Assembly: GCF_003334815.1 (NCBI RefSeq)
Contig: NZ_QOWO01000008.1
Reading direction: 5' to 3' (one strand)
DNA: 64,000 bases
Origin: Escherichia coli
Lineage (GTDB): Bacteria > Pseudomonadota > Gammaproteobacteria > Enterobacterales > Enterobacteriaceae
The notes under the pieces are model-generated. The model was not told the origin of the DNA. It worked only from the letters and a program-made list of their open reading frames with translations, and did no database searches. Positions 23,361 through 64,000 of the stretch are shown one piece after another (positions within the stretch are counted from its first letter, which is position 1; each line of letters opens with the position of its first letter). The position numbers were made by a program, and so were the translations under genes.

Positions 23361-23771
23361 ATGTACGCGGCAAAAGGCACCCAGGCCTATGCACAAATTG
23401 GCGTCGAAAGCGCCGTAATGAGCGCCAGCCAGCAGCAGCTGGTCACCATGCTATTTGATGGAGTGCTGAGCGCACTGGTTAGAGCGCGCCTGTTTATGCA
23501 GGACAACAATCAGCAAGGCAAAGGCGTCTCTTTGTCAAAAGCGATCAACATCATTGAGAACGGACTGCGGGTGAGTCTTGATGAAGATAGCAAAGACGAA
23601 TTAACCCAAAACTTGATTGCTCTTTATAGCTATATGGTCAGGCGTTTGCTGCAAGCCAATTTACGCAACGATGTCTCCGCAGTCGAAGAAGTGGAAGCAT
23701 TAATGCGCAATATTGCCGATGCCTGGAAAGAGTCGTTACTCTCCCCTTCTTTGATTCAGGACCCAGTCTGA
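23361..23771 (+). CDS. fliS: Flagellin-specific export chaperone
   Basis: 136-aa ORF; synteny fliD-fliS-fliT. Confidence 0.95.
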
Positions 23772-24136
23772 TGAACCATGCACCGCATTTGTATTTCGCC
23801 TGGCAACAACTCGTCGAAAAAAGCCAGCTCATGTTACGCCTGGCAACGGAAGAACAATGGGACGAACTCATCGCCAGCGAAATGGCGTATGTGAATGCGG
23901 TGCAGGAGATAGCACACCTGACTGAAGAGGTTGCCCCGTCCACCACGATGCAGGAGCAGCTCCGCCCGATGCTGCGCCTGATTCTCGACAACGAAAGCAA
24001 GGTAAAGCAGTTATTACAGATTCGTATGGATGAACTGGCGAAACTGGTCGGTCAGTCATCGGTGCAAAAATCGGTGTTAAGTGCCTATGGCGATCAGGGC
24101 GGCTTTGTGCTGGCTCCGCAAGATAACTTCTCGTGA
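23771..24136 (+). CDS. fliT: FliD chaperone / anti-FlhDC factor
   Basis: 121-aa ORF; start overlaps fliS stop (ATGA). Confidence 0.93.
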
Positions 24137-24213
24137 ATCTTAACGAGCTAATGGTTCGCGAATAATCCGATTACGGCTACGCTTCTAATGTTCCCCTTGA
24201 ATGGAGTCGAAGA

Positions 24214-25701: not shown

Positions 25702-25706
25702 ATTCA

Positions 25707-25727
25707 TCCCCGGCGGCAAGCCGGGGA
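25707..25727. terminator. Hairpin between convergent amyA and yedD
   Basis: tccccggc-ggcaa-gccgggga stem-loop. Confidence 0.5.
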
Positions 25728-25734
25728 GATTTCA

Positions 25735-26151
25735 TTACGGCAGTGGCGTCGGTAACGGCGCTTTATCCAGCGCGGCGGCACACTCTGCCGTCGGGCGATC
25801 CACACGCTCCATCGTCATACCATCGTACTCAATGGTGTTACCGTCACGCTCAACCTCGTATAGCTCACGTTTTACGGTAACGTTAGTGAGATCATCAGAC
25901 ATCAATGTCAACTTACCCGGCACGGCAATCACCCGCTGCCACTGACGGCAATCAAGAGTATCGCCCTCTTTAGTGACAATCAGGCTGCCTATCGCTTCCG
26001 GGCTGACCAGCGCACGTTGCGGCCCTTTGGTCTGCCAGTAGCCCGCCAGCCAGTCCGGCGCGGGGGTTTTCACGACATTGTTATAGTTTTCGACTTCGGC
26101 ACAGCCCGCCAGCAACATGAGCGCGCCTGCAATTGCGAGTTTTTTCATCAT
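25735..26151 (-). CDS. yedD: Lipoprotein YedD
   Basis: 138-aa ORF with lipobox MKKLAIAGALMLLAGC. Confidence 0.9.
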   Translation of the reverse strand: MMKKLAIAGALMLLAGCAEVENYNNVVKTPAPDWLAGYWQTKGPQRALVSPEAIGSLIVTKEGDTLDCRQWQRVIAVPGKLTLMSDDLTNVTVKRELYEVERDGNTIEYDGMTMERVDRPTAECAAALDKAPLPTPLP

Positions 26152-26334
26152 TCGTCCTGCATGAGAAGAAAAGAAGATTGTGGCATTAAAGCCCTGATGT
26201 CGCCAGCCTTTACAGGTTCAGAGAGAAATTTGATCTAACTATTATTTTTGTGAATTATTACCCCGAAAATAAATTTGCATGATGTATGATTCGCGACTCT
26301 TGTTTCAAACCTTCTGAGTTCAGAGGCTACATTC

Positions 26335-27540
26335 ATGTCATGGCAGCAATTCAAACACGCCTGGTTGATTAAATTCTGGGCACCCATCCCTGCGGTCATC
26401 GCGGCGGGTATTCTCTCCACTTACTATTTTGGCATTACTGGCACCTTTTGGGCTGTCACGGGTGAATTTACCCGTTGGGGCGGCCAGCTCCTGCAGCTGT
26501 TTGGCGTCCATGCTGAAGAGTGGGGTTATTTTAAAATTATCCATCTGGAAGGATCGCCATTAACCCGCATCGACGGGATGATGATCCTCGGCATGTTTGG
26601 CGGCTGCTTTGCCGCAGCGCTGTGGGCCAACAATGTCAAACTGCGCATGCCACGCAGCCGTATCCGCATTATGCAGGCCATTATTGGCGGTATTATCGCT
26701 GGTTTTGGCGCGCGTCTGGCAATGGGCTGTAACCTGGCGGCGTTCTTTACCGGTATTCCTCAGTTCTCGCTGCATGCCTGGTTCTTTGCCATCGCCACTG
26801 CCATTGGTTCATGGTTTGGCGCACGCTTTACCCTGCTGCCCATCTTCCGTATTCCCGTGAAAATGCAGAAAGTTTCTGCCGCCTCACCGCTGACGCAAAA
26901 ACCGGATCAGGCGCGGCGTCGTTTTCGTCTCGGGATGCTGGTCTTTTTCGGCATGCTGGGCTGGGCGCTGCTCACGGCGATGAACCAACCCAAACTGGGG
27001 CTGGCAATGCTGTTTGGCGTCGGCTTTGGTTTACTGATTGAACGTGCGCAAATCTGCTTTACTTCGGCGTTCCGCGATATGTGGATCACCGGACGTACCC
27101 ACATGGCGAAAGCAATCATTATTGGTATGGCGGTGAGTGCCATCGGGATCTTCAGTTACGTACAGTTAGGTGTTGAACCCAAAATCATGTGGGCGGGACC
27201 AAACGCGGTAATTGGTGGTTTACTGTTTGGTTTTGGCATCGTGCTGGCAGGCGGCTGCGAAACCGGTTGGATGTACCGCGCGGTAGAAGGTCAGGTGCAC
27301 TACTGGTGGGTCGGTCTGGGCAATGTGATCGGCTCAACCATTCTGGCGTATTACTGGGATGATTTCGCTCCGGCGCTGGCCACCGACTGGGACAAAATCA
27401 ACCTGCTGAAAACCTTTGGCCCGATGGGTGGCCTGCTGGTGACATATTTGCTGTTGTTTACTGCGCTGATGTTGATTATCGGCTGGGAAAAACGCTTCTT
27501 CCGCCGTGCGGCACCGCAGACTGCTAAGGAGATCGCATGA
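26335..27540 (+). CDS. yedE: YeeE/YedE family inner-membrane transporter (sulfur/selenium-related)
   Basis: 401-aa polytopic ORF; overlaps yedF start. Confidence 0.93.
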   Translation: MSWQQFKHAWLIKFWAPIPAVIAAGILSTYYFGITGTFWAVTGEFTRWGGQLLQLFGVHAEEWGYFKIIHLEGSPLTRIDGMMILGMFGGCFAAALWANNVKLRMPRSRIRIMQAIIGGIIAGFGARLAMGCNLAAFFTGIPQFSLHAWFFAIATAIGSWFGARFTLLPIFRIPVKMQKVSAASPLTQKPDQARRRFRLGMLVFFGMLGWALLTAMNQPKLGLAMLFGVGFGLLIERAQICFTSAFRDMWITGRTHMAKAIIIGMAVSAIGIFSYVQLGVEPKIMWAGPNAVIGGLLFGFGIVLAGGCETGWMYRAVEGQVHYWWVGLGNVIGSTILAYYWDDFAPALATDWDKINLLKTFGPMGGLLVTYLLLFTALMLIIGWEKRFFRRAAPQTAKEIA

Positions 27541-27770
27541 AAAATATCATTCCTGATTACCGTCTTGATATGGTGGGTGAACCCTGCCCTTATCCGGCAG
27601 TCGCAACCCTTGAGGCGATGCCGCAGTTAAAAAAAGGTGAGATCCTGGAAGTGGTGAGCGACTGTCCGCAGTCGATCAATAATATTCCACTGGATGCTCG
27701 TAATCACGGCTATACGGTGCTGGATATTCAGCAAGACGGGCCGACCATTCGTTATTTAATTCAGAAGTAA
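27537..27770 (+). CDS. yedF: TusA-like sulfurtransferase family protein YedF
   Basis: 77-aa ORF with TusA-like CPxP motif (GEPCPYPAV). Confidence 0.93.
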   Translation: MKNIIPDYRLDMVGEPCPYPAVATLEAMPQLKKGEILEVVSDCPQSINNIPLDARNHGYTVLDIQQDGPTIRYLIQK

Positions 27771-27878
27771 TCCCTCATTCCCGCTGTGGCCAACAGCGGG
27801 AATATCGTTGCCTCTGTACCACATAGATTTTACCCGCCCCCTCTCCTATTCTTTTCAGTGTGCTCTCAGGAGGTTGCT

Positions 27879-28547
27879 ATGTGTGGACGCTTTGCCCAAT
27901 CCCAAACGCGTGAAGATTACCTTGCGCTTCTCGCGGAAGATATTGAACGCGATATTCCCTATGATCCCGAACCCATTGGCAGATACAACGTCGCGCCGGG
28001 AACCAAAGTTCTTCTGCTCAGTGAACGTGATGAACACCTTCATCTGGATCCGGTTTTCTGGGGATATGCTCCCGGATGGTGGGATAAACCGCCGCTGATT
28101 AACGCCCGCGTAGAAACTGCGGCCACCAGTCGTATGTTTAAACCGCTCTGGCAACATGGTCGGGCAATCTGTTTTGCCGATGGCTGGTTTGAGTGGAAAA
28201 AAGAAGGCGACAAAAAACAGCCTTATTTTATCTATCGTGCTGACGGACAACCTGTTTTTATGGCCGCGATAGGTAGCACACCGTTTGAGCGCGGTGACGA
28301 AGCCGAAGGATTTTTAATTGTCACTGCAGCAGCAGACCAGGGTCTGGTAGATATTCATGACCGCCGCCCGCTGGTACTGTCGCCAGAAGCTGCGCGGGAA
28401 TGGATGCGGCAAGAGATTGGCGGTAAAGAAGCATCAGAAATTGCTACCAACGGCTGTGTGCCAGCAAACCAGTTCACCTGGCACCCGGTATCGCGCGCGG
28501 TAGGTAATGTCAAAAACCAGGGCGCGGAGTTAATTCAACCTGTTTGA
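27879..28547 (+). CDS. yedK: SRAP-domain abasic-site processing protein (SOS response-associated peptidase family)
   Basis: ORF track 27786..28547; start trimmed to MCGRFAQSQ (222 aa) with catalytic Cys2. Confidence 0.92.
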   Translation: MCGRFAQSQTREDYLALLAEDIERDIPYDPEPIGRYNVAPGTKVLLLSERDEHLHLDPVFWGYAPGWWDKPPLINARVETAATSRMFKPLWQHGRAICFADGWFEWKKEGDKKQPYFIYRADGQPVFMAAIGSTPFERGDEAEGFLIVTAAADQGLVDIHDRRPLVLSPEAAREWMRQEIGGKEASEIATNGCVPANQFTWHPVSRAVGNVKNQGAELIQPV

Positions 28548-28939
28548 TAAGCCAGGAGACTATTGATCAATAATACTGCGTCATAAGAAATCTCTATTAG
28601 ACAAAGTAGACGCTCCTTCCACATGCGCCACAAGAAACCTCTATTCCAGTGACACAATTACGCCTGATTATTTCCCTAGCCCGGAATATGAATAAAAACA
28701 TCAACAAAGATTAAATTATTCAAACGTTACTGTTGCGTCTGCGGTCGTAACAACATCCGACGTGGTGATGTGTATCAAATGAGGCCTCTGATGATCAGAG
28801 GGTTTATCGCGTATACGGATCGTGGATGGCAGAAAACTTTCAGAATCAGGTTTCCATTTTAAACCAGAAATTGAGTGAGTTTGCCCCATCCATGCCCCAC
28901 GCGGTGAGATCGGATGTAATTAACAACAGGTTACAAAAC

Positions 28940-29254
28940 CTACACCTGCATGCTCATCACTTCCTGATACGCCGCCACCAGCTTATTACGCACCTGAATC
29001 CCCATTTGCATAGAAACTGAGGCTTTTTGCATATCGGTCATCACATCGTTTAACGCCACGCCGGGTTCACCGAGAGTGAATTTTTCTGCCTGCGTGCGGG
29101 CAGCTGTTTGTGTATCACTAATGCGATCGAGCGCGGCGTGCAGCTGCCCGGCAAAACTAATGGTCGGTTGCGGCAGTGATTCCTGCGCACGCGCACTCAT
29201 CGCCGTAGCCTGTAACTGGCTGATAACCCCTTCAATCCCCTGTATCGCTGACAT
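28940..29254 (-). CDS. fliE: Flagellar hook-basal body complex protein FliE
   Basis: ORF track 28940..29284; start trimmed to [15 protein letters not shown] (104 aa). Confidence 0.95.
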
Positions 29255-29468
29255 TCTCGTCTCCCGGATAATTTCTGGTAGCAAAGCCTACCAGTAAGTC
29301 AATAAGACAAAGGCGCTAAATAACAACAAAAAAACGGGTTTATTGGCGGATAGAAAAAAACGAAAGCACAAATAATGGGAGCGTCAATTTTTCGAGTTTG
29401 CTGACCCGGGAGTGAGTCTTGTTCCACTTTGCCAATAACGCCGTCCATAATCAGCCACGAGGTGCGCG

Positions 29469-32793
<3,325 letters not shown>

Positions 32794-32794
<1 letters not shown>

Positions 32795-34167
32795 TGACCA
32801 CGCGCCTGACTCGCTGGCTAACCACGCTGGATAACTTTGAAGCCAAAATGGCGCAGTTGCCTGCGGTACGTCGCTATGGGCGATTAACCCGCGCTACCGG
32901 GCTGGTGCTGGAAGCCACCGGATTACAATTGCCGCTCGGCGCAACCTGTGTCATTGAACGCCAGAACGGCAGCGAAACGCACGAAGTAGAAAGCGAAGTC
33001 GTTGGCTTTAACGGTCAACGGCTGTTTTTAATGCCGCTGGAGGAAGTGGAAGGTGTCCTGCCCGGCGCGCGGGTTTATGCCAAAAACATTTCGGCTGAAG
33101 GACTGCAAAGCGGCAAGCAGTTGCCGCTCGGTCCGGCGTTATTAGGTCGCGTTCTGGACGGCAGCGGTAAGCCGCTCGATGGCCTGCCCTCCCCCGATAC
33201 GACGGAAACCGGTGCGCTGATTACCCCGCCATTTAACCCGTTGCAACGTACACCGATTGAACATGTGCTGGACACCGGCGTGCGCCCAATCAATGCCCTG
33301 CTTACCGTTGGGCGCGGGCAGCGTATGGGTCTGTTTGCTGGTTCTGGTGTCGGTAAAAGTGTGCTGCTGGGGATGATGGCCCGTTACACCCGCGCCGATG
33401 TCATTGTCGTGGGTTTAATTGGTGAACGCGGACGCGAAGTAAAAGATTTTATTGAGAATATCCTCGGTGCCGAAGGACGTGCACGCTCAGTGGTGATTGC
33501 CGCTCCGGCGGATGTGTCTCCACTCCTGCGAATGCAAGGTGCCGCCTATGCCACGCGCATTGCCGAAGATTTTCGCGATCGTGGTCAGCATGTGTTGCTG
33601 ATTATGGACTCCCTCACCCGCTACGCGATGGCCCAGCGTGAAATTGCGCTGGCGATTGGCGAACCCCCCGCCACCAAAGGTTATCCACCGTCGGTGTTTG
33701 CCAAATTACCGGCACTGGTCGAGCGTGCCGGAAATGGCATTAGCGGCGGCGGCTCGATTACCGCGTTTTATACCGTGCTCACTGAAGGCGATGACCAGCA
33801 GGATCCGATTGCCGACTCCGCGCGGGCGATCCTCGACGGTCACATTGTGCTGTCTCGCCGACTGGCGGAAGCCGGGCACTATCCGGCTATCGATATTGAA
33901 GCGTCGATCAGCCGCGCAATGACGGCGTTGATCAGTGAGCAACATTACGCGCGAGTGCGCACCTTTAAACAGCTGTTGTCGAGTTTTCAGCGTAACCGCG
34001 ATCTGGTTAGCGTCGGCGCGTATGCCAAAGGCAGCAATCCGATGCTCGATAAAGCCATCGCCCTGTGGCCGCAGCTGGAGGGCTATTTACAACAAGGCAT
34101 TTTTGAACGTGCGGACTGGGAAGCGTCTCTCCAGGGGCTGGAGCGTATTTTCCCGACAGTGTCATAA
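32794..34167 (+). CDS. fliI: Flagellum-specific ATPase FliI
   Basis: 457-aa ORF with Walker [14 protein letters not shown]; ATGA overlap with fliH. Confidence 0.97.
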
Positions 34168-34185
34168 CCCAGGAGATAACGGCAG

Positions 34186-34629
34186 ATGGCAGAACATGGC
34201 GCGCTGGCGACCCTGAAAGATCTGGCAGAAAAAGAGGTAGAGGATGCCGCGCGCCTGCTGGGTGAAATGCGTCGCGGATGTCAGCAGGCGGAAGAACAGC
34301 TCAAAATGCTGATCGATTATCAGAATGAATATCGCAATAACCTCAACAGCGATATGAGTGCCGGGATGACCAGCAACCGCTGGATCAACTATCAGCAGTT
34401 TATCCAGACGCTGGAAAAAGCCATTACTCAGCATCGCCAGCAACTTAATCAGTGGACGCAGAAAGTTGACATTGCCCTGAACAGCTGGCGAGAAAAGAAA
34501 CAACGTTTGCAGGCCTGGCAGACACTGCAGGAACGGCAATCCACGGCGGCACTGCTTGCAGAAAACCGCCTCGATCAGAAAAAGATGGATGAGTTCGCCC
34601 AGCGCGCCGCCATGAGGAAACCTGAATGA
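34186..34629 (+). CDS. fliJ: Flagellar export chaperone/stalk protein FliJ
   Basis: 147-aa coiled-coil ORF; synteny. Confidence 0.95.
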
Positions 34630-35753
34630 TTCGCTTAGCGCCCTTGATTACCGCCGACGTTGACACCACCACATTGCCTGGCGGCAAAGCCAGCGATACT
34701 GCACAAGATTTTCTCGCGTTGTTGAGCGAAGCATTAGCAGGCGAGACAACTACCGACAAAGCGGCCCCCCAGTTGCTGGTGGCAACAGATAAGCCCATGA
34801 CAAAAGGCGAGCCGCTGATCAGCGATATTGTTTCCGACGCGCAACAAGCGGATTTACTGATCCCTGTGGATGAAACACCGCTTGTCATCAACGACGAACA
34901 ATCCACATCAACACCGTTAACCACCGCTCAGACGATGACGTTGGCTGCGGTGGCTGACAAAAATACGACAAAAGACGAAAAAGCGGATGATCTGAATGAA
35001 GACGTCACCGCAAGCCTGAGCGCCCTTTTTGCGATGTTGCCGGGTTTTGACAATACGCCCAAAGTGACTGATGTGCCGTCAACCGTGTTACCGGCAGAGA
35101 AACCAACGCTCTTCACAAAACTGACTTCTGCGCAACTCACAACAGCACAGCCTGATGATGCCCCCGGCACACCAGCTCAGCCATTAACACCGCTGGTAGC
35201 AGAAGCCCAGAGTAAAGCGGAAGTCATCAGCACACCTTCACCGGTGACCGCTGCCGCCAGCCCGCTAATCACTCCACACCAGACACAGCCACTGCCCACC
35301 GTCGCCGCGCCTGTTTTGAGTGCACCGCTGGGTTCTCACGAATGGCAACAATCATTAAGCCAGCATATTTCGCTGTTCTCCCGCCAGGGGCAACAAAGTG
35401 CAGAGTTGCGTCTGCACCCGCAGGATTTAGGTGAAGTGCAAATCTCCCTCAAAGTGGATGATAACCAGGCGCAAATCCAGATGGTTTCACCACATCAGCA
35501 CGTACGCGCCGCCCTGGAAGCAGCGCTGCCGGTACTGCGTACGCAGCTGGCCGAAAGTGGCATTCAGTTAGGGCAAAGCAACATCAGTGGCGAAAGCTTT
35601 AGTGGTCAGCAGCAGGCCGCTTCCCAGCAACAGCAAAGCCAACGCACAGCAAACCATGAACCTCTGGCGGGGGAAGACGACGATACGCTTCCGGTTCCCG
35701 TCTCTTTACAAGGGCGTGTAACAGGCAACAGCGGCGTTGATATTTTCGCCTAA
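34626..35753 (+). CDS. fliK: Flagellar hook-length control protein FliK
   Basis: 375-aa Pro/Thr/Ala-rich ORF; overlaps fliJ stop. Confidence 0.95.
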
Positions 35754-35791
35754 CGTCAGAGGTAGCACCGTAATCCGCGTCTTTTCCCCGC

Positions 35792-35818
35792 TTTGTTGCG
35801 CTCAAGACGCAGGATAAT
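35792..35818 (+). promoter_or_regulatory. Sigma-28-type promoter upstream of fliL
   Basis: TCAA-gacgcaggataatta-GCCGATAA, perfect -10 and 15-nt spacer. Confidence 0.65.
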
Positions 35819-35857
35819 TAGCCGATAAGCAGTAGCGACACAGGAAGACCGCAACAC

Positions 35858-36322
35858 ATGACTGATTACGCGATAAGCAAGAAAAGCAAGCGATCGCTTT
35901 GGATCCCGATTCTGGTATTCATTACCCTCGCGGCCTGTGCCAGCGCAGGTTACAGCTACTGGCATTCGCATCAGGTTGCCGCTGACGACAACGCGCAGCA
36001 ACGCGTCGTGCCCTCACCGGTCTTCTACGCGCTGGATACCTTCACGGTCAATTTGGGCGATGCGGATCGCGTGCTTTATATCGGCATAACCCTGCGCCTG
36101 AAAGATGAAGCTACCCGCTCGCGGCTGAGTGAGTATTTGCCGGAAGTCCGTAGCCGTTTGCTGTTACTGTTTTCGCGTCAGGATGCTGCCGTACTGGCGA
36201 CAGAAGAAGGCAAGAAAAACCTGATTGCCGAGATTAAAACCACGCTTTCCACCCCGCTTGTTGCCGGGCAACCGAAACAGGATGTCACCGACGTGCTGTA
36301 TACCGCTTTTATTCTGCGATAA
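35858..36322 (+). CDS. fliL: Flagellar basal body-associated protein FliL
   Basis: 154-aa ORF with single N-terminal TM segment. Confidence 0.95.
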
Positions 36323-36326
36323 CGAC

Positions 36327-37331
36327 ATGGGCGATAGTATTCTTTCTCAAGCTGAAATTGATGCGCTGTTGAATGGTGACAGCGAAGTCAAAGACGAACC
36401 GACAGCCAGTGTTAGCGGCGAAAGTGACATTCGTCCGTACGATCCGAATACCCAACGACGGGTTGTGCGCGAACGTTTGCAGGCGCTGGAAATCATTAAT
36501 GAGCGCTTTGCTCGCCATTTTCGTATGGGGCTGTTCAACCTGCTGCGTCGTAGCCCGGATATAACCGTCGGGGCCATCCGCATTCAGCCGTACCATGAAT
36601 TTGCCCGCAACCTGCCGGTGCCGACCAACCTGAACCTTATCCATCTGAAACCGCTGCGCGGCACAGGGCTGGTGGTGTTCTCGCCGAGTCTGGTGTTTAT
36701 CGCCGTGGATAACCTGTTTGGCGGCGATGGACGCTTCCCGACCAAAGTGGAAGGTCGCGAGTTTACCCATACCGAACAGCGCGTCATCAACCGCATGTTA
36801 AAGCTGGCGCTTGAAGGCTATAGCGACGCCTGGAAGGCGATTAATCCGCTGGAAGTTGAGTACGTGCGTTCGGAAATGCAGGTGAAATTTACCAATATCA
36901 CCACCTCGCCGAACGACATTGTGGTTAACACGCCGTTCCATGTGGAGATTGGCAACCTGACCGGCGAATTTAATATCTGCCTGCCATTCAGCATGATCGA
37001 ACCGCTACGGGAATTGTTGGTTAACCCGCCGCTGGAAAACTCGCGTAATGAAGATCAGAACTGGCGCGATAACCTGGTGCGCCAGGTGCAGCATTCACAG
37101 CTGGAGCTGGTCGCCAACTTTGCCGATATCTCGCTACGCCTGTCGCAGATTTTAAAACTGAAACCCGGTGACGTCCTGCCGATAGAAAAACCCGACCGCA
37201 TCATCGCCCATGTTGACGGCGTCCCGGTGCTGACCAGTCAGTACGGCACTCTCAACGGTCAGTATGCGTTACGGATAGAACATTTGATTAACCCGATTTT
37301 AAATTCTCTGAACGAGGAACAGCCCAAATGA
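36327..37331 (+). CDS. fliM: Flagellar motor switch protein FliM
   Basis: ORF track 36225..37331; start trimmed to MGDSILSQAEIDALL (334 aa). Confidence 0.96.
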   Translation: MGDSILSQAEIDALLNGDSEVKDEPTASVSGESDIRPYDPNTQRRVVRERLQALEIINERFARHFRMGLFNLLRRSPDITVGAIRIQPYHEFARNLPVPTNLNLIHLKPLRGTGLVVFSPSLVFIAVDNLFGGDGRFPTKVEGREFTHTEQRVINRMLKLALEGYSDAWKAINPLEVEYVRSEMQVKFTNITTSPNDIVVNTPFHVEIGNLTGEFNICLPFSMIEPLRELLVNPPLENSRNEDQNWRDNLVRQVQHSQLELVANFADISLRLSQILKLKPGDVLPIEKPDRIIAHVDGVPVLTSQYGTLNGQYALRIEHLINPILNSLNEEQPK

Positions 37332-37741
37332 GTGACATGAATAATCCGGCCGATGACAACAACGGCGCAATGGACGATCTGTGGGCTGAAGCGTTGAGCG
37401 AACAAAAATCAACCAGCAGCAAAAGCGCTGCCGACGCGGTGTTCCAGCAATTTGGCGGTGGTGATGTCAGCGGAACGTTGCAGGATATCGACCTGATTAT
37501 GGATATTCCGGTCAAGCTGACCGTCGAGCTGGGCCGTACGCGGATGACCATCAAAGAGCTGTTGCGTCTGACGCAAGGGTCCGTCGTGGCGCTGGACGGT
37601 CTGGCGGGCGAACCACTGGATATTCTGATCAACGGTTATTTAATCGCCCAGGGCGAAGTGGTGGTCGTTGCCGATAAATATGGCGTGCGGATCACCGATA
37701 TCATTACTCCGTCTGAGCGAATGCGCCGCCTGAGCCGTTAG
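37328..37741 (+). CDS. fliN: Flagellar motor switch protein FliN
   Basis: 137-aa ORF; overlaps fliM stop. Confidence 0.96.
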   Translation: MSDMNNPADDNNGAMDDLWAEALSEQKSTSSKSAADAVFQQFGGGDVSGTLQDIDLIMDIPVKLTVELGRTRMTIKELLRLTQGSVVALDGLAGEPLDILINGYLIAQGEVVVVADKYGVRITDIITPSERMRRLSR

Positions 37742-37743
37742 TG

Positions 37744-38109
37744 ATGAATAACCACGCTACTGTGCAATCTTCCGCGCCGGTTTCTGCTGCGCCACTGCTG
37801 CAGGTGAGCGGCGCACTCATCGCCATTATTGCCCTGATCCTCGCTGCTGCCTGGCTGGTAAAACGGTTGGGATTTGTCCCTAAACGCACTGGCGTTAACG
37901 GTCTGAAAATTAGCGCCAGTGCTTCGCTGGGCGCGCGTGAACGGGTTGTGGTGGTCGATGTGGAAGATGCACGGCTGGTGCTCGGCGTTACCGCAGGGCA
38001 AATCAATCTGCTGCATAAACTTCCCCCTTCAGCACCAACGGAAGAGATACCGCAGCCCGATTTTCAGTCGGTCATGAAAAACTTGCTTAAGCGTAGCGGG
38101 AGATCCTGA
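37744..38109 (+). CDS. fliO: Flagellar biosynthesis protein FliO
   Basis: ORF track 37741..38109; start set to [10 protein letters not shown] (121 aa). Confidence 0.93.
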
Positions 38110-38846
38110 TGCGTCGTTTGTTGTCTGTCGCCCCTGTCCTTCTCTGGCTGATTACGCCCCTCGCCTTCGCGCAACTGCCGGGTATCACCAGCCAGCCGCT
38201 GCCTGGCGGTGGACAAAGCTGGTCGCTCCCGGTGCAGACGCTGGTGTTCATCACCTCGTTGACGTTTATTCCGGCAATTTTACTGATGATGACCAGTTTC
38301 ACCCGCATCATTATTGTTTTTGGTTTATTGCGTAACGCGCTGGGAACACCCTCCGCGCCACCTAACCAGGTATTGCTGGGGTTGGCGCTGTTTTTGACCT
38401 TTTTTATTATGTCGCCGGTGATCGACAAAATTTATGTCGATGCGTACCAGCCATTCAGCGAAGAGAAAATATCAATGCAGGAGGCGCTGGAAAAAGGGGC
38501 GCAGCCGCTGCGTGAGTTTATGCTGCGTCAGACCCGTGAGGCGGATTTAGGGTTGTTTGCCAGACTGGCGAATACCGGCCCGTTGCAGGGACCTGAAGCC
38601 GTGCCGATGCGCATTTTGCTCCCGGCCTACGTGACCAGCGAGTTGAAAACCGCATTTCAGATAGGCTTCACGATTTTCATCCCTTTTTTGATTATCGACC
38701 TGGTGATTGCCAGCGTGTTGATGGCATTGGGGATGATGATGGTCCCCCCCGCCACCATTGCTCTGCCCTTTAAACTGATGCTGTTTGTACTGGTGGATGG
38801 TTGGCAATTGCTGGTCGGTTCGCTGGCGCAGAGCTTTTACAGCTAG
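38109..38846 (+). CDS. fliP: Flagellar type III export apparatus protein FliP
   Basis: 245-aa membrane ORF; ATGA overlap with fliO. Confidence 0.97.
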
Positions 38847-38855
38847 AGAGGCAAA

Positions 38856-39125
38856 ATGACACCTGAATCGGTCATGATGATGGGGACTGAAGCGATGAAA
38901 GTCGCGCTGGCACTGGCTGCCCCGCTATTGTTGGTAGCGTTGGTCACGGGCCTTATCATCAGTATTTTGCAGGCCGCCACGCAGATTAACGAAATGACGC
39001 TGTCGTTTATTCCGAAAATCATCGCCGTATTTATCGCCATTATTATTGCCGGACCGTGGATGCTCAATCTGTTGCTGGATTACGTCCGCACCTTGTTCAC
39101 TAACCTGCCGTATATCATCGGGTAG
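38856..39125 (+). CDS. fliQ: Flagellar export apparatus protein FliQ
   Basis: 89-aa membrane ORF. Confidence 0.96.
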
Positions 39126-39132
39126 CCGTACT

Positions 39133-39918
39133 ATGTTGCAGGTGACAAGCGAACAATGGCTATCCTGGTTAAGCCTGTACTTCTGGCCGTTACTGCGCGT
39201 GCTGGCGCTGATCTCCACCGCACCAATTCTGAGCGAACGCAGCGTGCCGAAACGGGTAAAACTGGGGCTGGCAATGATGATCACGTTCGCCATTGCCCCA
39301 TCATTACCTGCCAACGATGTTCCTGTTTTTTCGTTCTTTGCTCTGTGGCTGGCCGTACAGCAGATCCTGATCGGTATTGCGCTTGGTTTTACCATGCAAT
39401 TTGCCTTTGCCGCTGTGCGAACCGCTGGCGAAATTATCGGTCTGCAAATGGGGCTGTCATTTGCGACGTTTGTCGATCCGGCCAGCCATCTCAATATGCC
39501 CGTTTTAGCGCGTATCATGGATATGCTGGCGTTATTGCTGTTCCTGACATTTAACGGTCATTTATGGTTAATTTCACTGCTGGTCGATACCTTTCACACC
39601 CTGCCGATTGGTGGCGAACCGCTGAACAGCAATGCGTTTCTGGCACTCACCAAAGCAGGGAGTTTGATTTTCCTTAACGGGCTGATGCTGGCGTTACCGC
39701 TCATTACTCTGCTGCTGACACTGAATCTGGCATTAGGTTTACTTAATCGTATGGCCCCGCAATTATCCATTTTTGTTATTGGATTTCCATTAACTCTGAC
39801 TGTCGGCATCTCTTTAATGGCGGCATTAATGCCGTTAATTGCGCCTTTTTGCGAACATTTATTCAGTGAAATTTTTAATTTGCTGGCTGATATTATTAGT
39901 GAATTGCCATTAATATAA
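39133..39918 (+). CDS. fliR: Flagellar export apparatus protein FliR
   Basis: ORF track 39046..39918; start trimmed to [19 protein letters not shown] (261 aa). Confidence 0.95.
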
Positions 39919-39943
39919 TTCCGTAACGTTTATCATGTTATCC

Positions 39944-39957
39944 TAAGGATTATCCGA
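39944..39957. promoter_or_regulatory. Candidate RcsAB box upstream of rcsA
   Basis: TAAGGATTATCCGA resembles the RcsAB box consensus TaAGaatatTCctA; rcsA autoregulation is established. Confidence 0.35.
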
Positions 39958-40207
39958 AAAATAATACCTACGAACATCTTCCAGGATACTCCTGCGGCGA
40001 AATATTTGTTTTAAGCTCACTCACATATCGCAACATTTACTTTACTTTAAGACAATTCCAGGCAAATTATACAACACTTTACGGGATAGTAAGTCCGCCT
40101 GGAAAATCGCGAGAGTGGCGCATTAGGTGACCCATGTTGTTCCGTTTAGTCATGATGAAATATTCAGGTAAGGGGAATTATCGTTACGCATTGAGTGAGG
40201 GTATGCC

Positions 40208-40831
40208 ATGTCAACGATTATTATGGATTTATGTAGTTACACCCGACTAGGTTTAACCGGGTATCTGTTGAGTAGAGGGGTTAAAAAAAGAGAAATCAAC
40301 GACATTGAAACCGTTGATGACCTTGCCATAGCTTGTGATTCACAGCGCCCTTCAGTGGTGTTTATTAATGAGGACTGTTTCATCCATGATGCTTCTAACA
40401 GTCAGCGCATCAAGCACATCATTAATCAACATCCCAATACGTTATTTATCGTTTTTATGGCAATTGCCAATGTTCATTTTGATGAATATCTATTGGTCAG
40501 AAAAAATTTATTGATCAGTTCTAAATCGATTAAACCGGAATCTCTCGACGATATCCTTGGCGATATTCTGAAAAAAGAGACAACGATAACCTCTTTTTTA
40601 AATATGCCGACGTTATCATTGAGCCGGACCGAATCGAGTATGTTGCGAATGTGGATGGCAGGTCAGGGAACCATTCAAATCTCTGACCAAATGAATATCA
40701 AAGCCAAGACCGTTTCATCGCATAAAGGTAATATTAAACGTAAGATCAAAACGCATAATAAACAGGTTATCTACCATGTCGTCCGACTGACGGATAATGT
40801 GACTAATGGTATTTTTGTCAACATGCGCTAA
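40208..40831 (+). CDS. rcsA: Capsule synthesis co-regulator RcsA (LuxR-type)
   Basis: 207-aa ORF with C-terminal LuxR HTH. Confidence 0.95.
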
Positions 40832-40837
40832 CACATT

Positions 40838-40862
40838 CTGACTGGTGGTTTCCCACCAGTCA
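40838..40862. terminator. Hairpin between convergent rcsA and dsrB
   Basis: ctgactggtgg-tttc-ccaccagtcag perfect inverted repeat. Confidence 0.5.
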
Positions 40863-40874
40863 GGCTGAATAAGA

Positions 40875-41153
<279 letters not shown>

Positions 41154-41225
41154 CTATACTTAAGAGATGCCAGGCGGACTTAACGACTGGCGGCAACAAC
41201 AGAGTAACGGTTGCGAGGAAAGATG

Positions 41226-41453
41226 ATGAAAACCGCAAAAGAGTACAGCGATACCGCAAAACGTGAGGTCAGCGTCGATGTCGATGCCCTGCTGGCGGCG
41301 ATCAATGAAATTAGCGAAAGCGAAGTTCATCGCAGCCAGAACGATTCTGAACACGTTAGCGTCGATGGACGTGAATATCATACATGGCGTGAATTAGCGG
41401 ATGCCTTCGAACTGGATATTCATGACTTCAGCGTCTCTGAAGTGAATCGTTGA
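41226..41453 (+). CDS. yodD: Stress-induced small protein YodD
   Basis: ORF track 41211..41453; start trimmed to MKTAKEYSDTAKREV (75 aa). Confidence 0.88.
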   Translation: MKTAKEYSDTAKREVSVDVDALLAAINEISESEVHRSQNDSEHVSVDGREYHTWRELADAFELDIHDFSVSEVNR

Positions 41454-41466
41454 ATGCACAATAAAA

Positions 41467-41553
41467 AAATCCCGACCCTGAGGGGGTCGGGATGAAACTT
41501 GCTTAAGCAAGAAGCACTTAAAAAATTCGTTACACCAGGAAATCTGATGTGTT
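41467..41553 (-). ncRNA. dsrA: DsrA small regulatory RNA
   Basis: Reverse complement reads AACACATCAGATTTCCTGGTGTAACGAATTTTTTAAGTGCTTCTTGCTTAAGCAAGTTTCATCCCGACCCCCTCAGGGTCGGGATTT, which I recognise as DsrA including its terminator hairpin. Confidence 0.92.
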
Positions 41554-41732
41554 CATCACCTTATCCGCAATTTTTTTCGCTGACAAGAAAATATTCGCCA
41601 TATGAATGATTAACGCTACTTATGAATAGAAATGTGACGCACGTCACCCCTTGGTGGCTCTGGCGTCAGCGGGATCGCTCCCGAAAAAATCATCTTTGAT
41701 AATTTGTGCTGTTTTGAGAATCATCCTGGTAA

Positions 41733-44257
<2,525 letters not shown>

Positions 44258-57353: not shown

Positions 57354-57386
57354 CTTCATATTGCCGACAAAGTACGCGTTATCCCT

Positions 57387-57420
57387 GCCGGATGTGGCGC
57401 GAGCGCCCTATCCGGCCTAC
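57387..57420. repeat. REP (palindromic unit) element downstream of msrQ
   Basis: gccggatgtggcgcgagcgccctatccggcctac matches the enterobacterial REP pattern. Confidence 0.7.
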
Positions 57421-57550
57421 TCAGATCACATCAGGTTATGTTTCGTTTGTCATCAACCTCAAATTATCAACACAATTCATTTTATTTCAATAAGATAGAT
57501 AAGTACACCTGAGAAAACTATGCTCTCATCTCCTAAGAGTTGTTGCATTT

Positions 57551-57577
57551 TGTTATATGTTACAATATAACATTACA
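57551..57577. promoter_or_regulatory. Candidate Zur box in the zinT promoter
   Basis: Palindromic tgttatatgttacaatataacatta resembles the Zur operator; about 35 bp upstream of the zinT start. Confidence 0.5.
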
Positions 57578-57609
57578 CATCATATACAATGACTCTGGAG
57601 GAAACTGTT

Positions 57610-58260
57610 TTGGCGATTCGTCTTCACAAACTGGCTGTTGCTTTAGGTGTCTTTATGGTTAGCGCTCCTGCCTTTTCGCATGGTCATCACTCACACGGCA
57701 AACCCTTAACAGAGGTCGAACAAAAAGCTGCTAATGGTGTTTTTGATGATGCCAATGTACAAAACCGAAAGCTGAGTGACTGGGATGGAGTCTGGCAATC
57801 CGTTTATCCTTTACTGCAAAGTGGCAAACTTGACCCCGTCTTTCAGAAGAAAGCGGATGCAGATAAAACTAAAACATTTGCTGAAATTAAAGATTATTAT
57901 CACAAAGGTTATGCGACAGATATCGAGATGATTGGCATTGAGGACGGCATTGTTGAATTCCATAGAAATAATGAAACAACATCCTGTAAATATGATTACG
58001 ATGGATACAAAATACTCACCTATAAATCAGGCAAGAAAGGCGTTCGTTACTTATTCGAATGTAAAGATCCTGAAAGCAAAGCCCCTAAATATATACAATT
58101 TAGCGATCATATAATTGCACCACGAAAATCATCTCATTTTCACATTTTTATGGGTAATGATTCACAGCAATCTTTATTAAATGAAATGGAAAACTGGCCA
58201 ACGTATTATCCATATCAGTTGAGTAGCGAAGAAGTGGTCGAGGAAATGATGTCTCATTGA
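57610..58260 (+). CDS. zinT: Periplasmic zinc/cadmium-binding protein ZinT
   Basis: ORF track 57589..58260; start set to TTG giving [10 protein letters not shown]... (216 aa); His-rich HGHHSHG after the signal peptide. Confidence 0.93.
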
Positions 58261-58602
58261 GTATTCTCATGATAACGCCTCGATGCCGCTTTAGTAAGTC
58301 ATCATAACTGCCACTGGTCCATCCACAAACGCCACTGAACGCAAGCTAGCTACAGACACGCTCATCACTATGACGTGTCTGTATATTAATAAGCTAACCC
58401 GCATTGAGTTAACCAATAACGGATTCCATACACAATACGGCCAACAGAGAAAGATACCTGTGCTCACGCCATTGCTTATATTGGCTGGTTACAATGTGCA
58501 CTATCAATTTTTTAAATAACAAATTCTTAAAACCACTTCTGTATAAGGAATTTTTAAGGTTCGTGGGATAGCTTGACTGTAAAAATTACAGGAGCTACAA
58601 AA

Positions 58603-59133
58603 ATGAACCGATTCTCAAAAACTCAAATTTATTTACATTGGATAACGCTGCTTTTCGTTGCAATAACCTATGCCGCGATGGAACTCCGTGGCTGGTTTCC
58701 TAAAGGTAGTAGTACTTATCTGCTGATGCGAGAAACACATTACAATGCGGGTATATTCGTTTGGGTGTTAATGTTTTCACGCCTGATTATAAAACACCGT
58801 TATAGTGATCCTTCTATTGTACCACCGCCACCTGCCTGGCAAATGAAAGCGGCTTCGCTAATGCACATCATGCTTTATATAACCTTCCTTGCACTTCCTC
58901 TGCTGGGGATTGCTTTAATGGCTTACAGTGGAAAATCGTGGAGTTTCCTTGGTTTCAATGTGTCTCCCTTTGTTACCCCAAACAGCGAAATTAAAGTACT
59001 GATAAAAAATATTCACGAAACCTGGGCAAATATAGGTTACTTTTTAATCGCAGCTCACGCTGGCGCAGCACTCTTTCATCACTACATTCAGAAAGATAAT
59101 ACTCTGTTACGAATGATGCCTCGCCGCAAATAA
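58603..59133 (+). CDS. yodB: Cytochrome b561 family protein YodB
   Basis: ORF track 58573..59133; start trimmed to MNRFSKTQIYLHW (176 aa). Confidence 0.92.
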   Translation: MNRFSKTQIYLHWITLLFVAITYAAMELRGWFPKGSSTYLLMRETHYNAGIFVWVLMFSRLIIKHRYSDPSIVPPPPAWQMKAASLMHIMLYITFLALPLLGIALMAYSGKSWSFLGFNVSPFVTPNSEIKVLIKNIHETWANIGYFLIAAHAGAALFHHYIQKDNTLLRMMPRRK

Positions 59134-59702
59134 GTCGATCCCCTGACAAGGAAATGTGAACCATGGACATCAACGCGTCATAAATGTTTACGCAAGTGCA
59201 CAATGCACCCTTTCCACTATCAACAAGGAGGAGCAGAAACTGTGTAAATCGTACAATGGTAAGACTTATCAAAAATACAGGTTAATTTTGGTATTTAAAC
59301 CTTTTTTACTTGTTAGTATGATACAAAGGCTTTCAAAAAAGCTGGGAAATTCAACAACTCTTGGAAATTATGGACTTTGTCCCGCGGCTTTAATCTGACG
59401 GCCGCGTTCCTTTTTTGACTCAATTATTGACCCCTTCTCTACGCAACTTCAGTTCCCACCACCAACTTTGCGGCAGTTTCATAGGATGAATGTCTAAAAG
59501 AATAATGGTGAGCGATAAGAAAACGACTGAATAACTGCACATATTCGCTCGAAACTTTCCTGTCAGATCCATAGCGAATCAAGTGCTGAATGTCACAGTA
59601 TCGAACAGAAAACAGTGACGATCTAACCCATCAAGAATATTCTACGATTGTTCTGTTTAGGAAAAGCAAGGCGGGAAGTCGGGAGATAAGTCATTGATAA
59701 AG

Positions 59703-59792
59703 TGGCGGAGAGAGGGGGATTTGAACCCCCGGTAGAGTTGCCCCTACTCCGGTTTTCGAGACCGGTCCGTTCAGCCGCTCCGGCATCTCTCC
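59703..59792 (-). tRNA. serU: tRNA-Ser (CGA)
   Basis: Reverse complement reads GGAGAGATGCCGGAGCGGCTGAACGGACCGGTCTCGAAAACCGG...CTCTCCGCCA, 90 nt with long variable arm. Confidence 0.93.
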
Positions 59793-59885
59793 GTTCAGAT
59801 GGTTGCCATGATGCCAGGAAATTTGGCATTTTAACAGTCCCTGTCCGTGCAATTTTGTTCAAGTGACGAGTTTGCGAGCAAAACG

Positions 59886-60683
59886 ATGATTAAGTGGCCC
59901 TGGAAAGTACAAGAATCAGCACATCAAACTGCCCTTCCCTGGCAGGAAGCACTATCGATCCCCCTTTTAACGTGTCTGACGGAACAGGAACAAAGCAAAT
60001 TAGTCACTCTTGCCGAACGTTTTTTACAGCAAAAGCGGCTTGTTCCTTTACAGGGCTTTGAACTGGATTCATTAAGAAGCTGCCGGATAGCACTTCTATT
60101 TTGCCTACCCGTTCTGGAGTTAGGACTGGAATGGCTGGATGGTTTTCATGAAGTCTTAATTTATCCTGCGCCATTTGTGGTCGATGATGAATGGGAAGAC
60201 GATATCGGTCTGGTGCATAACCAACGTATTGTTCAGTCAGGTCAGAGCTGGCAGCAAGGGCCTATCGTTTTGAACTGGTTGGATATACAAGATTCTTTTG
60301 ATGCTTCTGGTTTTAACCTGATTATTCATGAAGTCGCTCATAAGCTGGACACCCGTAACGGCGATCGCGCCAGCGGAGTTCCCTTTATTCCGTTGCGTGA
60401 GGTTGCTGGCTGGGAACACGATCTTCATGCTGCAATGAACAACATTCAGGAAGAAATCGAATTGGTTGGCGAGAATGCGGCGAGCATTGATGCTTATGCT
60501 GCGAGTGATCCTGCTGAATGTTTTGCCGTACTTTCTGAATATTTCTTTAGCGCCCCAGAACTTTTTGCTCCTCGTTTCCCTTCATTGTGGCAACGTTTCT
60601 GCCAATTTTATCAACAAGATCCTTTGCAGAGACTGCATCACGCTAATGATACAGACTCGTTTTCGGCGACGAATGTTCATTAA
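59886..60683 (+). CDS. mtfA: Mlc titration factor A (zinc-dependent peptidase family)
   Basis: ORF track 59847..60683; start trimmed to [14 protein letters not shown] (265 aa); HEVAH motif. Confidence 0.93.
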
Positions 60684-60783
60684 TTAACAACTTTGCAGAT
60701 TAATTAACCAATTGAAATGACTTATGAAATTTAGTGTTGACAGACAAGGTACCGCTAAGTAATATGCGCCCCGTTCACACGAT

Positions 60784-60859
60784 TCCTCTGTAGTTCAGTC
60801 GGTAGAACGGCGGACTGTTAATCCGTATGTCACTGGTTCGAGTCCAGTCAGAGGAGCCA
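60784..60859 (+). tRNA. asnT: tRNA-Asn (GUU)
   Basis: TCCTCTGTAGTTCAGTCGGTAGAACGGCGGACTGTTAATCCG...GGAGCCA, 76 nt. Confidence 0.93.
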
Positions 60860-60947
60860 AATTCTAAAAATTCGCTTTTTTAGCGCAATGTCACTGACCT
60901 TAGTTGAACATTGTTTTTTAACGGATAGCGGGTTTTTAACATCTTAA

Positions 60948-60980
60948 GCGCCCTCGACCTTTATGGTTGAGGGCGTTTTG
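60948..60980 (+). terminator. Terminator downstream of asnT
   Basis: gcgccctc...gagggcg hairpin followed by TTTTG. Confidence 0.55.
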
Positions 60981-61172
60981 CTATGAACGCCATCACCATT
61001 TTCCCCTCGATTATAAAACTTGAGTTATTCAGTAGTCTCCCCTCTTGCAACTCACACCCAAAACTGCCTAACGAAAAGTTATTAATTTTCAATCATATTG
61101 CTATCAGTATTTACATTTTTTCGCTGTGCTAGAAAGGGCGCATTTATGTTAGCTCGTTCAGGGAAGGTAAGC

Positions 61173-63023
61173 ATGGCTACGAAGAAGAGAAGTGGAGAAG
61201 AAATAAATGACCGACAAATATTATGCGGGATGGGAATTAAACTACGCCGCTTAACTGCGGGTATCTGCCTGATAACTCAACTTGCGTTCCCTATGGCTGC
61301 GGCAGCACAAGGTGTGGTAAACGCCGCAACCCAACAACCAGTTCCTGCACAAATTGCCATTGCAAATGCCAATACGGTGCCCTACACCCTTGGAGCGCTG
61401 GAATCGGCCCAAAGCGTTGCCGAACGTTTCGGTATTTCGGTGGCTGAGTTACGCAAACTCAACCAGTTTCGTACGTTTGCTCGAGGTTTTGATAATGTCC
61501 GCCAGGGTGATGAACTGGATGTCCCGGCTCAAGTTAGTGAAAATAATTTAACCCCGCCACCGGGTAATAGCAGTGACAACCTCGAGCAACAGATAGCCAG
61601 TACTTCACAGCAAATCGGGTCTCTGCTCGCCGAAGATATGAACAGCGAGCAAGCGGCAAATATGGCGCGTGGATGGGCCTCTTCTCAGGCTTCAGGCGCA
61701 ATGACAGACTGGTTAAGCCGCTTCGGTACCGCAAGAATCACGCTGGGCGTGGATGAAGATTTTAGCCTGAAGAACTCCCAGTTCGATTTTCTCCATCCGT
61801 GGTATGAAACGCCTGATAATCTCTTTTTCAGTCAGCATACTCTCCATCGTACTGACGAGCGTACGCAGATTAACAACGGCTTAGGTTGGCGTCATTTCAC
61901 TCCCACATGGATGTCGGGCATCAACTTCTTTTTCGACCACGATCTTAGCCGTTACCACTCCCGCGCCGGCATTGGCGCGGAGTACTGGCGCGACTATCTA
62001 AAATTAAGCAGTAACGGCTATTTGCGACTGACCAACTGGCGCAGCGCACCTGAACTGGACAACGATTATGAAGCACGCCCGGCCAATGGCTGGGATGTAC
62101 GCGCAGAAGGCTGGCTACCCGCCTGGCCGCACCTTGGCGGTAAACTGGTCTATGAACAGTATTATGGCGATGAAGTGGCCCTGTTCGATAAAGACGATCG
62201 GCAAAGTAATCCTCATGCCATAACCGCTGGACTTAACTATACCCCCTTCCCGCTGATGACCTTCAGCGCGGAGCAACGCCAGGGTAAACAGGGCGAAAAT
62301 GACACCCGTTTTGCCGTCGATTTTACCTGGCAACCTGGCAGCGCAATGCAGAAACAGCTTGACCCGAATGAAGTCGCTGCACGGCGTAGCCTTGCAGGCA
62401 GCCGTTATGATCTGGTGGATCGCAACAACAATATCGTTCTGGAATATCGCAAAAAAGAACTGGTTCGCCTGACCCTGACAGACCCCGTGACAGGGAAGTC
62501 AGGAGAAGTGAAATCACTGGTTTCGTCGCTACAAACCAAATATGCCCTGAAAGGCTATAACGTCGAAGCCACCGCACTGGAAGCTGCCGGTGGCAAAGTG
62601 GTCACAACGGGTAAAGATATTCTGGTTACCCTGCCGGCTTACCGGTTCACCAGTACGCCAGAAACCGATAACACCTGGCCGATTGAAGTCACCGCCGAAG
62701 ATGTCAAAGGCAATTTGTCGAATCGTGAACAGAGCATGGTGGTCGTTCAGGCACCTACGCTAAGCCAGAAAGATTCCTCGGTATCGTTAAGTACCCAAAC
62801 ATTGAACGCGGATTCCCATTCAACCGCCACACTGACTTTTATTGCGCATGATGCAGCAGGTAATCCTGTTGTCGGGCTGGTGCTCTCGACGCGTCACGAA
62901 GGTGTTCAGGACATCACCCTTTCTGACTGGAAAGATAATGGTGACGGAAGCTATACCCAGATCCTGACCACAGGAGCGATGTCTGGCACGCTGACGCTGA
63001 TGCCACTGAATCGCCACGGATAA
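61173..63023 (+). pseudogene. yeeJ: yeeJ inverse-autotransporter adhesin, N-terminal ~617 codons only; reading frame ends at the IS junction
   Basis: ORF track 61098..63023; start set to MATKKRSGEEINDRQILCGMGIKLRR; stop codon lies 1 nt from the stop of the IS3-family orfB on the opposite strand; full-length YeeJ is several-fold longer. Confidence 0.85.
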
Positions 63024-64000
63024 TTTAGACACTTCCGAGCCGTTGATAATACTGGTTTTCATATTCTGTCGGTGACATCTGATCGCTGGAACCATGCCGA
63101 CGCTTACTGTTATAAAACATTTCGATGTAATCAAAAATATCGCTGCGGACTTCTTCCCGCGTTCCGTAGATCTTTTTCTTTATCCGTTCGCGTTTCAACA
63201 ACTGGAAAAAGCTTTCTGCAACCGCATTATCATGGCAGTTACCGCGACGGCTCATGCTGCCCTCCAGGCCGTGTGATTTTAGGAACGACTGCCATTCATG
63301 GCTTGTGTACTGACTGCCCTGATCCGAATGAACCAGCACCTGTTTTTGGGGATTACGCCGCCATACAGCCATCAGCAGTGCGTTCAGGACAATGTCTTTT
63401 GTCATCCGGGATTGCATGGACCAGCCGATAATTTTGCGTGAGAACAGATCAACAACCACGGCAAGATACAGCCAGCCTTCGTGGGTCCTTATGTAGGTTA
63501 TGTCCGTTACCCAACGCTCATCCGGAGCATCCGGATTGAACTGTCGCTGAAGCCTGTTGGGCGACACGATACTGGCCTCGCCTTTACGAGCCCGCGGGCT
63601 CCGGTATCCGACCTGAGCCTTTATCCCGATACGTTTCATCAGTCGCCAGACTCTGTTCACTCCGCACTGTTGCCCGCTGTCCCGCAGATCTAAATGGATT
63701 TTGCGATAACCATAGACGCATCCCGATTCCAGCCAGAACTGTTTAATCTGTCCTGTCAGTCTCAGGTCTGCCTGATGGCGTTGTGAATGCGGCTGCTGAA
63801 GCCAGGCGTAAAAACCACTGGGATGAACATCCAGCACCCGACAGAGCAGGCGAACAGGCCAGCAACAGGTGTTGTCACGGATAAAGGCGTACCTCAGTCG
63901 GACAGCTTTGCGAAGTACGCCACTGTAGATTCAATTGGTCAACGCAACAGTTATGTGAAAACATGGGGTTGCGGAGGTTTTTTGAATGAGACGAACATTT
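62998..64000 (-). mobile_element. IS3-family insertion sequence, partial (continues beyond right edge), inserted in yeeJ
   Basis: Transposase orfB plus upstream orfA-frame sequence running to the window edge; left boundary estimated to within ~25 bp from a TG-initiated terminal sequence just 3' of the orfB stop. Confidence 0.75.
63025..63837 (-). CDS. IS3-family transposase OrfB (DDE integrase core)
   Basis: 270-aa ORF with IS3-family motifs (VTDITYIRT..GWLYLAVVVDLFSRKIIGWSM, HSDQGSQYTS, NCHDNAVAESFF); starts at GTG and the frame stays open a further ~30 codons upstream, consistent with an OrfAB fusion. Confidence 0.9.
   Translation of the reverse strand: MLDVHPSGFYAWLQQPHSQRHQADLRLTGQIKQFWLESGCVYGYRKIHLDLRDSGQQCGVNRVWRLMKRIGIKAQVGYRSPRARKGEASIVSPNRLQRQFNPDAPDERWVTDITYIRTHEGWLYLAVVVDLFSRKIIGWSMQSRMTKDIVLNALLMAVWRRNPQKQVLVHSDQGSQYTSHEWQSFLKSHGLEGSMSRRGNCHDNAVAESFFQLLKRERIKKKIYGTREEVRSDIFDYIEMFYNSKRRHGSSDQMSPTEYENQYYQRLGSV

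Follow-up and report, generated by a model that had tools for sequence, protein, structure and literature searches.

In the stretch of Escherichia coli DNA considered here, the reading frame of the adhesin gene yeeJ stops after 616 codons at the edge of an insertion sequence (IS). What became of the rest of the gene: was it separated from its 5' part by a plain insertion, beyond which it still lies intact, or was it removed from the chromosome altogether? The window (the whole stretch that was analysed, 64,000 nucleotides from contig NZ_QOWO01000008.1 of assembly GCF_003334815.1) consists of ordinary E. coli core chromosome over positions 1 to 60700, and the features that bear on the question are collected at its right-hand end (Table 1). 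An Rfam scan of positions 59000 to 64000 returned two tRNAs and nothing else, and comparison with the gene order of MG1655 revealed no island inserted at asnT.

Table 1. Features of the window, with positions counted from its first base
Feature	Position	Strand	Content	Basis
Core chromosomal genes	1..60700		otsB, araFGH, ftnA/B, uvrYC, sdiA, fli operons incl. fliC, dcm-vsr, hchA, hprRS, msrPQ, zinT, serU, mtfA	
tRNA-Asn asnT	60784..60859	+	conserved left neighbour of yeeJ	ARAGORN, Rfam, MG1655 synteny
yeeJ 5' fragment	61173..63006	+	611 native codons	identity to MG1655 yeeJ, Pfam, PGAP
Tail of the fusion reading frame	63007..63023	+	remainder of codon 612, NRHG and TAA, encoded by the IS inverted repeat	sequence read
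IS-A (ISEhe3-like)	63007..63923	-	right-hand 917 bp of a 1229-bp IS3-family element	identity to D1 copy, NCBIfam
IS30	63924..64000	+	first 77 bp of the element	match to K-12 IS30A; full element in identical genomes

The yeeJ fragment and its break point

Between positions 60700 and 63006 the window is 99.65% identical to the asnT-yeeJ region of MG1655, and the alignment ends exactly at 63006, which corresponds to MG1655 locus coordinate 3772. This match upholds the reading of the first-pass annotation, in which the gene was identified as yeeJ and described as cut where an IS3-family element ends. By synteny, the fragment sits at the orthologous position between asnT and yeeL/shiA. The yeeJ frame continues across the break to a TAA stop at 63021..63023, such that 61173..63023 comprises 616 codons plus the stop, of which 611 are native and the last five (LNRHG) come from the IS inverted repeat; codon 612 (CTG) is a hybrid, its last two bases being foreign and derived from the TGA that opens that repeat. 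Both the end of the frame at 63023 and the stop of an opposite-strand orfB at 63025, as given at first reading, are present in the list of open reading frames. With regard to the start, PGAP uses the ATG at 61173 in genomes identical to the window, and the start currently annotated in MG1655 corresponds to 61230.

What remains of the protein is its signal/LysM region, a complete barrel, and about one to two Ig-like domains, the last of which is cut. Pfam reports a match over the full length of the IAT_beta model (PF11924; residues 144-419, E 7e-114) and one Invasin_D3/Big_1 domain (residues 533-611) that breaks off at model position 80 of 98; the barrel had thus been correctly assigned in the first-pass annotation, whereas the "first Big repeats" listed there reduce to this single, interrupted Ig-like domain. 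LysM itself is represented by only a partial and weak Pfam match (residues 79-99, E 0.32). The LysM domain of K-12 YeeJ has been demonstrated experimentally (PMC5595812), and the LysM region of the window falls within the stretch that is 99.65% identical at the DNA level to K-12 yeeJ. In NCBIfam, residues 4-611 align with the model for the N-terminal part of IatC, a related adhesin. The C-terminal passenger, made up of the Big_1 array and the C-type lectin cap, is absent here, and the remainder of the gene is deleted in the relatives; with 611 of 2358 residues native, the loss of the passenger that had been anticipated from the frame alone is confirmed. Because the barrel is kept but the defining passenger is gone, we treat the fragment as a gene remnant and not as a functional member of the family. 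The label applied by PGAP in identical genomes is "yeeJ, incomplete, missing C-terminus" (pseudogene). Judging from its sequence, the 616-residue product would have no adhesin function; a stub composed of the LysM region and the barrel could still be made.

A truncated frame of this kind might also be a naturally short yeeJ allele or an artefact of assembly, and according to a warning by Martinez-Gil et al., errors in assembling repetitive adhesin genes may account for some of the truncated yeeJ calls. Here, however, the break precedes the repetitive Big_1 array and falls, to the exact base, at the tip of the IS inverted repeat, from which the last five codons are read. Furthermore, 48 independently assembled genomes, out of 5426 complete ones from E. 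coli, have the identical junction between yeeJ and the IS, and in these yeeJ is annotated as a pseudogene by PGAP. We therefore regard a short allele or an artefact as extremely improbable.

An IS3-family element interrupted by IS30

The element that abuts yeeJ (IS-A) presents the tip of its right inverted repeat on the plus strand from 63007 (TGAATCGCCACGGATAATTTAGACAC). Its orfB remnant, on the minus strand, encodes 270 amino acids and remains open from 63923 to the stop codon at 63025..63027, without an internal stop between the IS30 junction and that codon. The product is an IS3-family transposase according to NCBIfam (NF033516, 338 bits at a cut-off of 160, profile positions 110-369), and is a DDE (rve) transposase as expected for this family. 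E. coli D1 contains an intact copy of IS-A with a length of 1229 bp, terminal inverted repeats that match each other, a 3-bp target-site duplication (CCA) and, in the PGAP annotation, a "programmed frameshift"; its identity to the copy here is 99.2-99.5%, and 99.3-99.5% for the stretch that corresponds to the IS-A portion of the window (locus L005, 1782..2698). The inverted repeats at both ends of IS-A read TGAATCGCCAC(A/G)G..AGACAC, with the left one starting TGAATCGCCACGG. Imperfect repeats ending in TG...CA, as well as the 3-bp duplication of the D1 copy, are traits of the IS3 family. A plasmid copy (LR134252.1) annotated as "ISEhe3 orfA" shows 98.0% DNA identity to IS-A, and the name "ISEhe3-like" is used here purely as a label, taken from one depositor's annotation of that copy.

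It had been proposed that the IS3-family element runs off the end of the window. Instead, IS-A is interrupted at 63923/63924, 917 bp from its right end, by a copy of IS30 in the opposite orientation. The left inverted repeat of IS30 begins at 63924 (TGTAGATTCAATTGG; read further, TGTAGATTCAATTGGTCAACGC), the ATG of its transposase lies at 63986 (ATGAGACGAACATTT, MRRTF), and 81 of the 82 bases at 63919..64000 match K-12 IS30A and its flank. Genomes identical to the window contain the full 1221-bp IS30 with a 2-bp target-site duplication (AC/GT), one copy of which is formed by the final two bases of the IS-A portion (AC, 63922..63923).

The position of IS30 also bears on the programmed -1 frameshift by which orfA and orfB of IS-A are joined. 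The slippery run of the element (TTAAAAAAAGCC) is an A7 in strains 52F4, S43 and D1. It is located outside the window, on the far side of IS30 and 6 nt past the point where IS30 inserted, and this accounts for the failure to find a frameshift site within the window. The A6 run at 63978..63983 and the stop at 63931..63933, which had been weighed as parts of the frameshift region, are both present in the sequence but belong to IS30 and not to IS-A: the former is the run of T that separates the ribosome-binding site of IS30 from the ATG, and the latter falls in the IS30 inverted repeat. Entering 6 nt downstream of the A7 run and duplicating 2 bp, IS30 split orfA from orfB and killed IS-A at a later stage. 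In strain G5, the slippery run (locus L001, about 16463..16469) reads A5TA instead of A7, a second inactivating change in a dead copy.

The site occupied by IS30 is shared with other elements. In the variants of 52F4 and S43, and in the other orientation in K-12 IS911A, IS30 sits 6 nt 3' of the A-run in the context ATATTAAAAAAAGCCGT/GGCG (window 63907..63940; locus L010, 9224/9225 and 10445/10446; locus L011, 9614 and 10836; locus L004, 4541/4542), within an IS3-family frameshift window that reads ATATTAAAAAAAGCCGTGGCGTACTT. The target-site duplications are GC/GC in S43 versus GT/GT in 52F4; as they differ between two IS-A variants, they point to independent entries of IS30 into the same dinucleotide in the same relative orientation. 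In total, this makes at least three independent hits of IS30 on the one dinucleotide within the frameshift window of IS3-family elements. A passage of PMC9333248 that cites Olasz et al. 1998 describes near-palindromic hot spots as preferred targets of IS30. The three cases (52F4, S43 and K-12 IS911A) are consistent with this, and the frameshift window looks like an IS30 hot spot at which IS3-family elements are inactivated.

The far junction and the deletion

Strain 52F4 is 100% identical to the window over 54700..64000 (9301 bases) and differs from it at 8 positions in the first 49.9 kb, and we infer from this identity that the window continues beyond 64000 as 52F4 does. The order of features in 52F4 is the yeeJ fragment, the right part of IS-A, IS30, the left part of IS-A with an intact left inverted repeat, a 564-bp fragment of yeeL, and shiA. 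The far end of IS-A adjoins the yeeL pseudogene in 24 genomes (52F4 and 23 others). Relative to MG1655, 52F4 lacks locus coordinates 3773..9765(7), that is, 5993-5995 bp (~5.99 kb), the boundary being ambiguous by 2 bp because TG is shared at the junction. The missing segment comprises yeeJ codons 612-2358, the spacer that separates the two genes, and 489 bp from the 3' end of the yeeL pseudogene, and a 6.4-kb query covering it gave zero matches in the window or in the loci of the relatives.

At first reading the allele had been taken for a simple insertion of an IS3-family element, with the 3' 5.2 kb of yeeJ located just past the IS and thus outside the window, and if one considers only the window, which ends inside the nested IS30, the data are compatible with that view. 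The relatives argue strongly against it. In 52F4, despite identity over the last 9301 bases, yeeL follows directly after the IS; the 23 other genomes likewise join the far IS end to yeeL; and the yeeJ remainder is missing from all relatives examined. Absence of yeeJ-homologous sequence past the far end of the IS was the outcome that the first-pass annotation had itself named as contradicting its proposal. When chimeric queries were used to search for the reciprocal junction, in which an IS end is joined to the part of yeeJ downstream of the break, it was found in 0 of 5426 complete E. coli genomes in both orientations. Finally, comparison of the flanks of IS-A at the yeeJ/yeeL locus revealed no 3-bp target-site duplication: in the orientation of the IS, the yeeL side reads ...ATATGAAT (...GAAT) and the yeeJ side GTGGCATC... 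(GTG...). A simple insertion is therefore very unlikely.

The absence of a target-site duplication around IS-A indicates that the allele arose by an IS-associated deletion. Taking the junctions together with the missing segment, we consider it highly probable that yeeJ is here a lineage-specific null allele that stems from an IS-associated deletion of about 5.99 kb, and not from a single insertion, and that the IS responsible was subsequently killed by IS30. The right inverted repeat of IS-A is fused to yeeJ after codon 611 and, in the closest genomes, the left inverted repeat is fused to yeeL. IS3-family elements transpose by a copy-out-paste-in mechanism, and deletions of this type usually result when a second IS copy lands nearby and the two direct repeats then recombine. 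Likely routes at this locus would be recombination between two direct IS copies, or intramolecular transposition from an active junction of the two inverted repeats; no intermediate allele, whether a yeeJ that is complete apart from the IS or a locus with a pair of IS copies, was encountered.

The same IS-associated deletion could in principle be followed by the structure found in strain G5, which matches the tail of the window at 3300 of 3301 bases. In G5, IS-A has received at its nt 38-40 (TTA) another complete element of the IS3 family (IS-B), and the left inverted repeat of IS-A has been lost together with a further 374 bp of yeeL. However, at the single base where G5 differs, the window agrees with 52F4, and the 24 genomes with the 52F4-type right junction do not include G5. 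We consider continuation along the lines of G5 to be unlikely, and retain the arrangement of 52F4 as the probable one.

Derived branches, other breaks and known systems

The remaining carriers of the junction, which lack IS30, include ETEC strains (ETEC-2265) and environmental strains (ET979). In this branch, the yeeJ fragment is followed by 490 bp of the right end of IS-A, a group II intron, 746 bp of an IS-B relative (94% identical), a 40-bp left repeat of IS-A, and the same yeeL junction. As an IS between yeeJ 3772 and yeeL ~9766 is common to all of these genomes, its presence there represents the primary event, and the nested elements arrived later. The allele is accordingly useful as a lineage marker, with two derived branches that are distinguished by IS30 versus the group II intron.

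The IS-B-type elements of G5 (locus L001, 16720..17952) and ET979 (locus L002, 17063..17848) are variants with 94% identity and inverted repeats TGGACTGACCCC..., and in these two branches both occupy the same TTA at nt 38-40 of the IS-A left repeat, a site that is empty in 52F4. This suggests that IS-B-type elements target the IS-A left repeat in a site-specific manner. For the naming of IS-B, plasmid annotations offer only "IS3 family transposase" (best match 96.8%, to Salmonella plasmids). The group II intron (ltrA; locus L002, 14797..17062, and also loci L006, L007 and L008) lies between the 490 bp of IS-A and the 746 bp of the other IS, and 490 + 746 amounts to 1236 bp, or about one IS length; one possible cause is that the intron had homed into homologous orfB sites in the two ISs and that its copies then recombined.

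Breaks in yeeJ that involve related elements can also be seen in other strains. S43 (locus L011, 9300..11752) has the same yeeJ breakpoint with the composite of IS and IS30 inverted and 1.55% divergent, and its right junction lies at MG1655 locus coordinate 10449, upstream of shiA; its IS differs from that of 52F4 at 36 sites. Possible causes are an independent insertion at the same site, or insertion targeted to the inverted repeat beside a resident copy, followed by deletion. A deletion allele in 2018-05-2CC (locus L012, 9782..11085) is independent and again involves an ISEhe3-like element. There, yeeJ is interrupted at a point some 483 bp further downstream, an intact IS stands directly before shiA, and the strain contains 16-17 copies of that IS.

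The phosphodiester after codon 611 of yeeJ thus carries ISEhe3-like elements of two variants in opposite orientations (the 52F4 type and S43). It is conceivable, although in our estimation rather doubtful, that loss of the yeeJ passenger is a recurrent, site-targeted event and not a single accident. A recurrent event of this kind would suggest that insertions favour hot spots, that these commensal and ETEC lineages are under selection to lose the adhesin, or that both factors apply.

IS-mediated pseudogenisation is routine, and the present allele is an ordinary one: 48 RefSeq genomes already list it as a pseudogene, and it adds another example to a known pattern. In the inverse autotransporter YeeJ, which has been characterised, it is the surface-exposed passenger that promotes biofilm formation, and the gene is intact in about 35-40% of E. 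coli and was found disrupted in 15 of 96 genomes (PMC5595812, PMC6714894). A premature stop in yeeJ marks the ST410 clone B5/H24RxC (PMC10786849). The literature contains general statements on frequent disruption of yeeJ, and this particular IS allele has not been described in it. For an accessory biofilm adhesin the allele itself matters little, but it does call for caution in adhesin typing, as PCR or read mapping directed at the 5' barrel would score strains that lack the passenger as yeeJ-positive.

Relative to YeeJ of MG1655 (b1978, type Ve), the fragment described here shares the locus (asnT-yeeJ-yeeL-shiA), the N-terminal region and the complete inverse autotransporter barrel; it differs in retaining 611 of 2358 residues, with 5 IS-encoded residues appended, and in being a RefSeq pseudogene. 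IS-A has in common with ISEhe3, as labelled by the depositor, the orfA/orfB organization, the A7 slippery run, the TGA...TCA ends and, in the intact copy, a 3-bp target-site duplication, but is split by IS30 and lacks a duplication at the yeeJ locus. A similar composite is found in the CP4-6 prophage of K-12 (IS911A::IS30A, insN/insI1), where IS30 has likewise inactivated an IS3-family element, having entered the frameshift window at the homologous position (17 nt from where ATATTAAAAA starts) with a 2-bp duplication. We considered identity of the window composite with this K-12 element and rejected it, as the IS30 part alone matches: the host IS is a different one (no DNA match outside IS30), the relative orientation of IS30 is opposite, and the locus is another. 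Other disrupted yeeJ alleles, including frameshifts, deletions and the ST410 stop (PMC5595812, PMC10786849), resemble the present one in losing the passenger of a variably present adhesin; compared with a point mutation of the ST410 type, the probable cause here is an IS-associated deletion of 6 kb.
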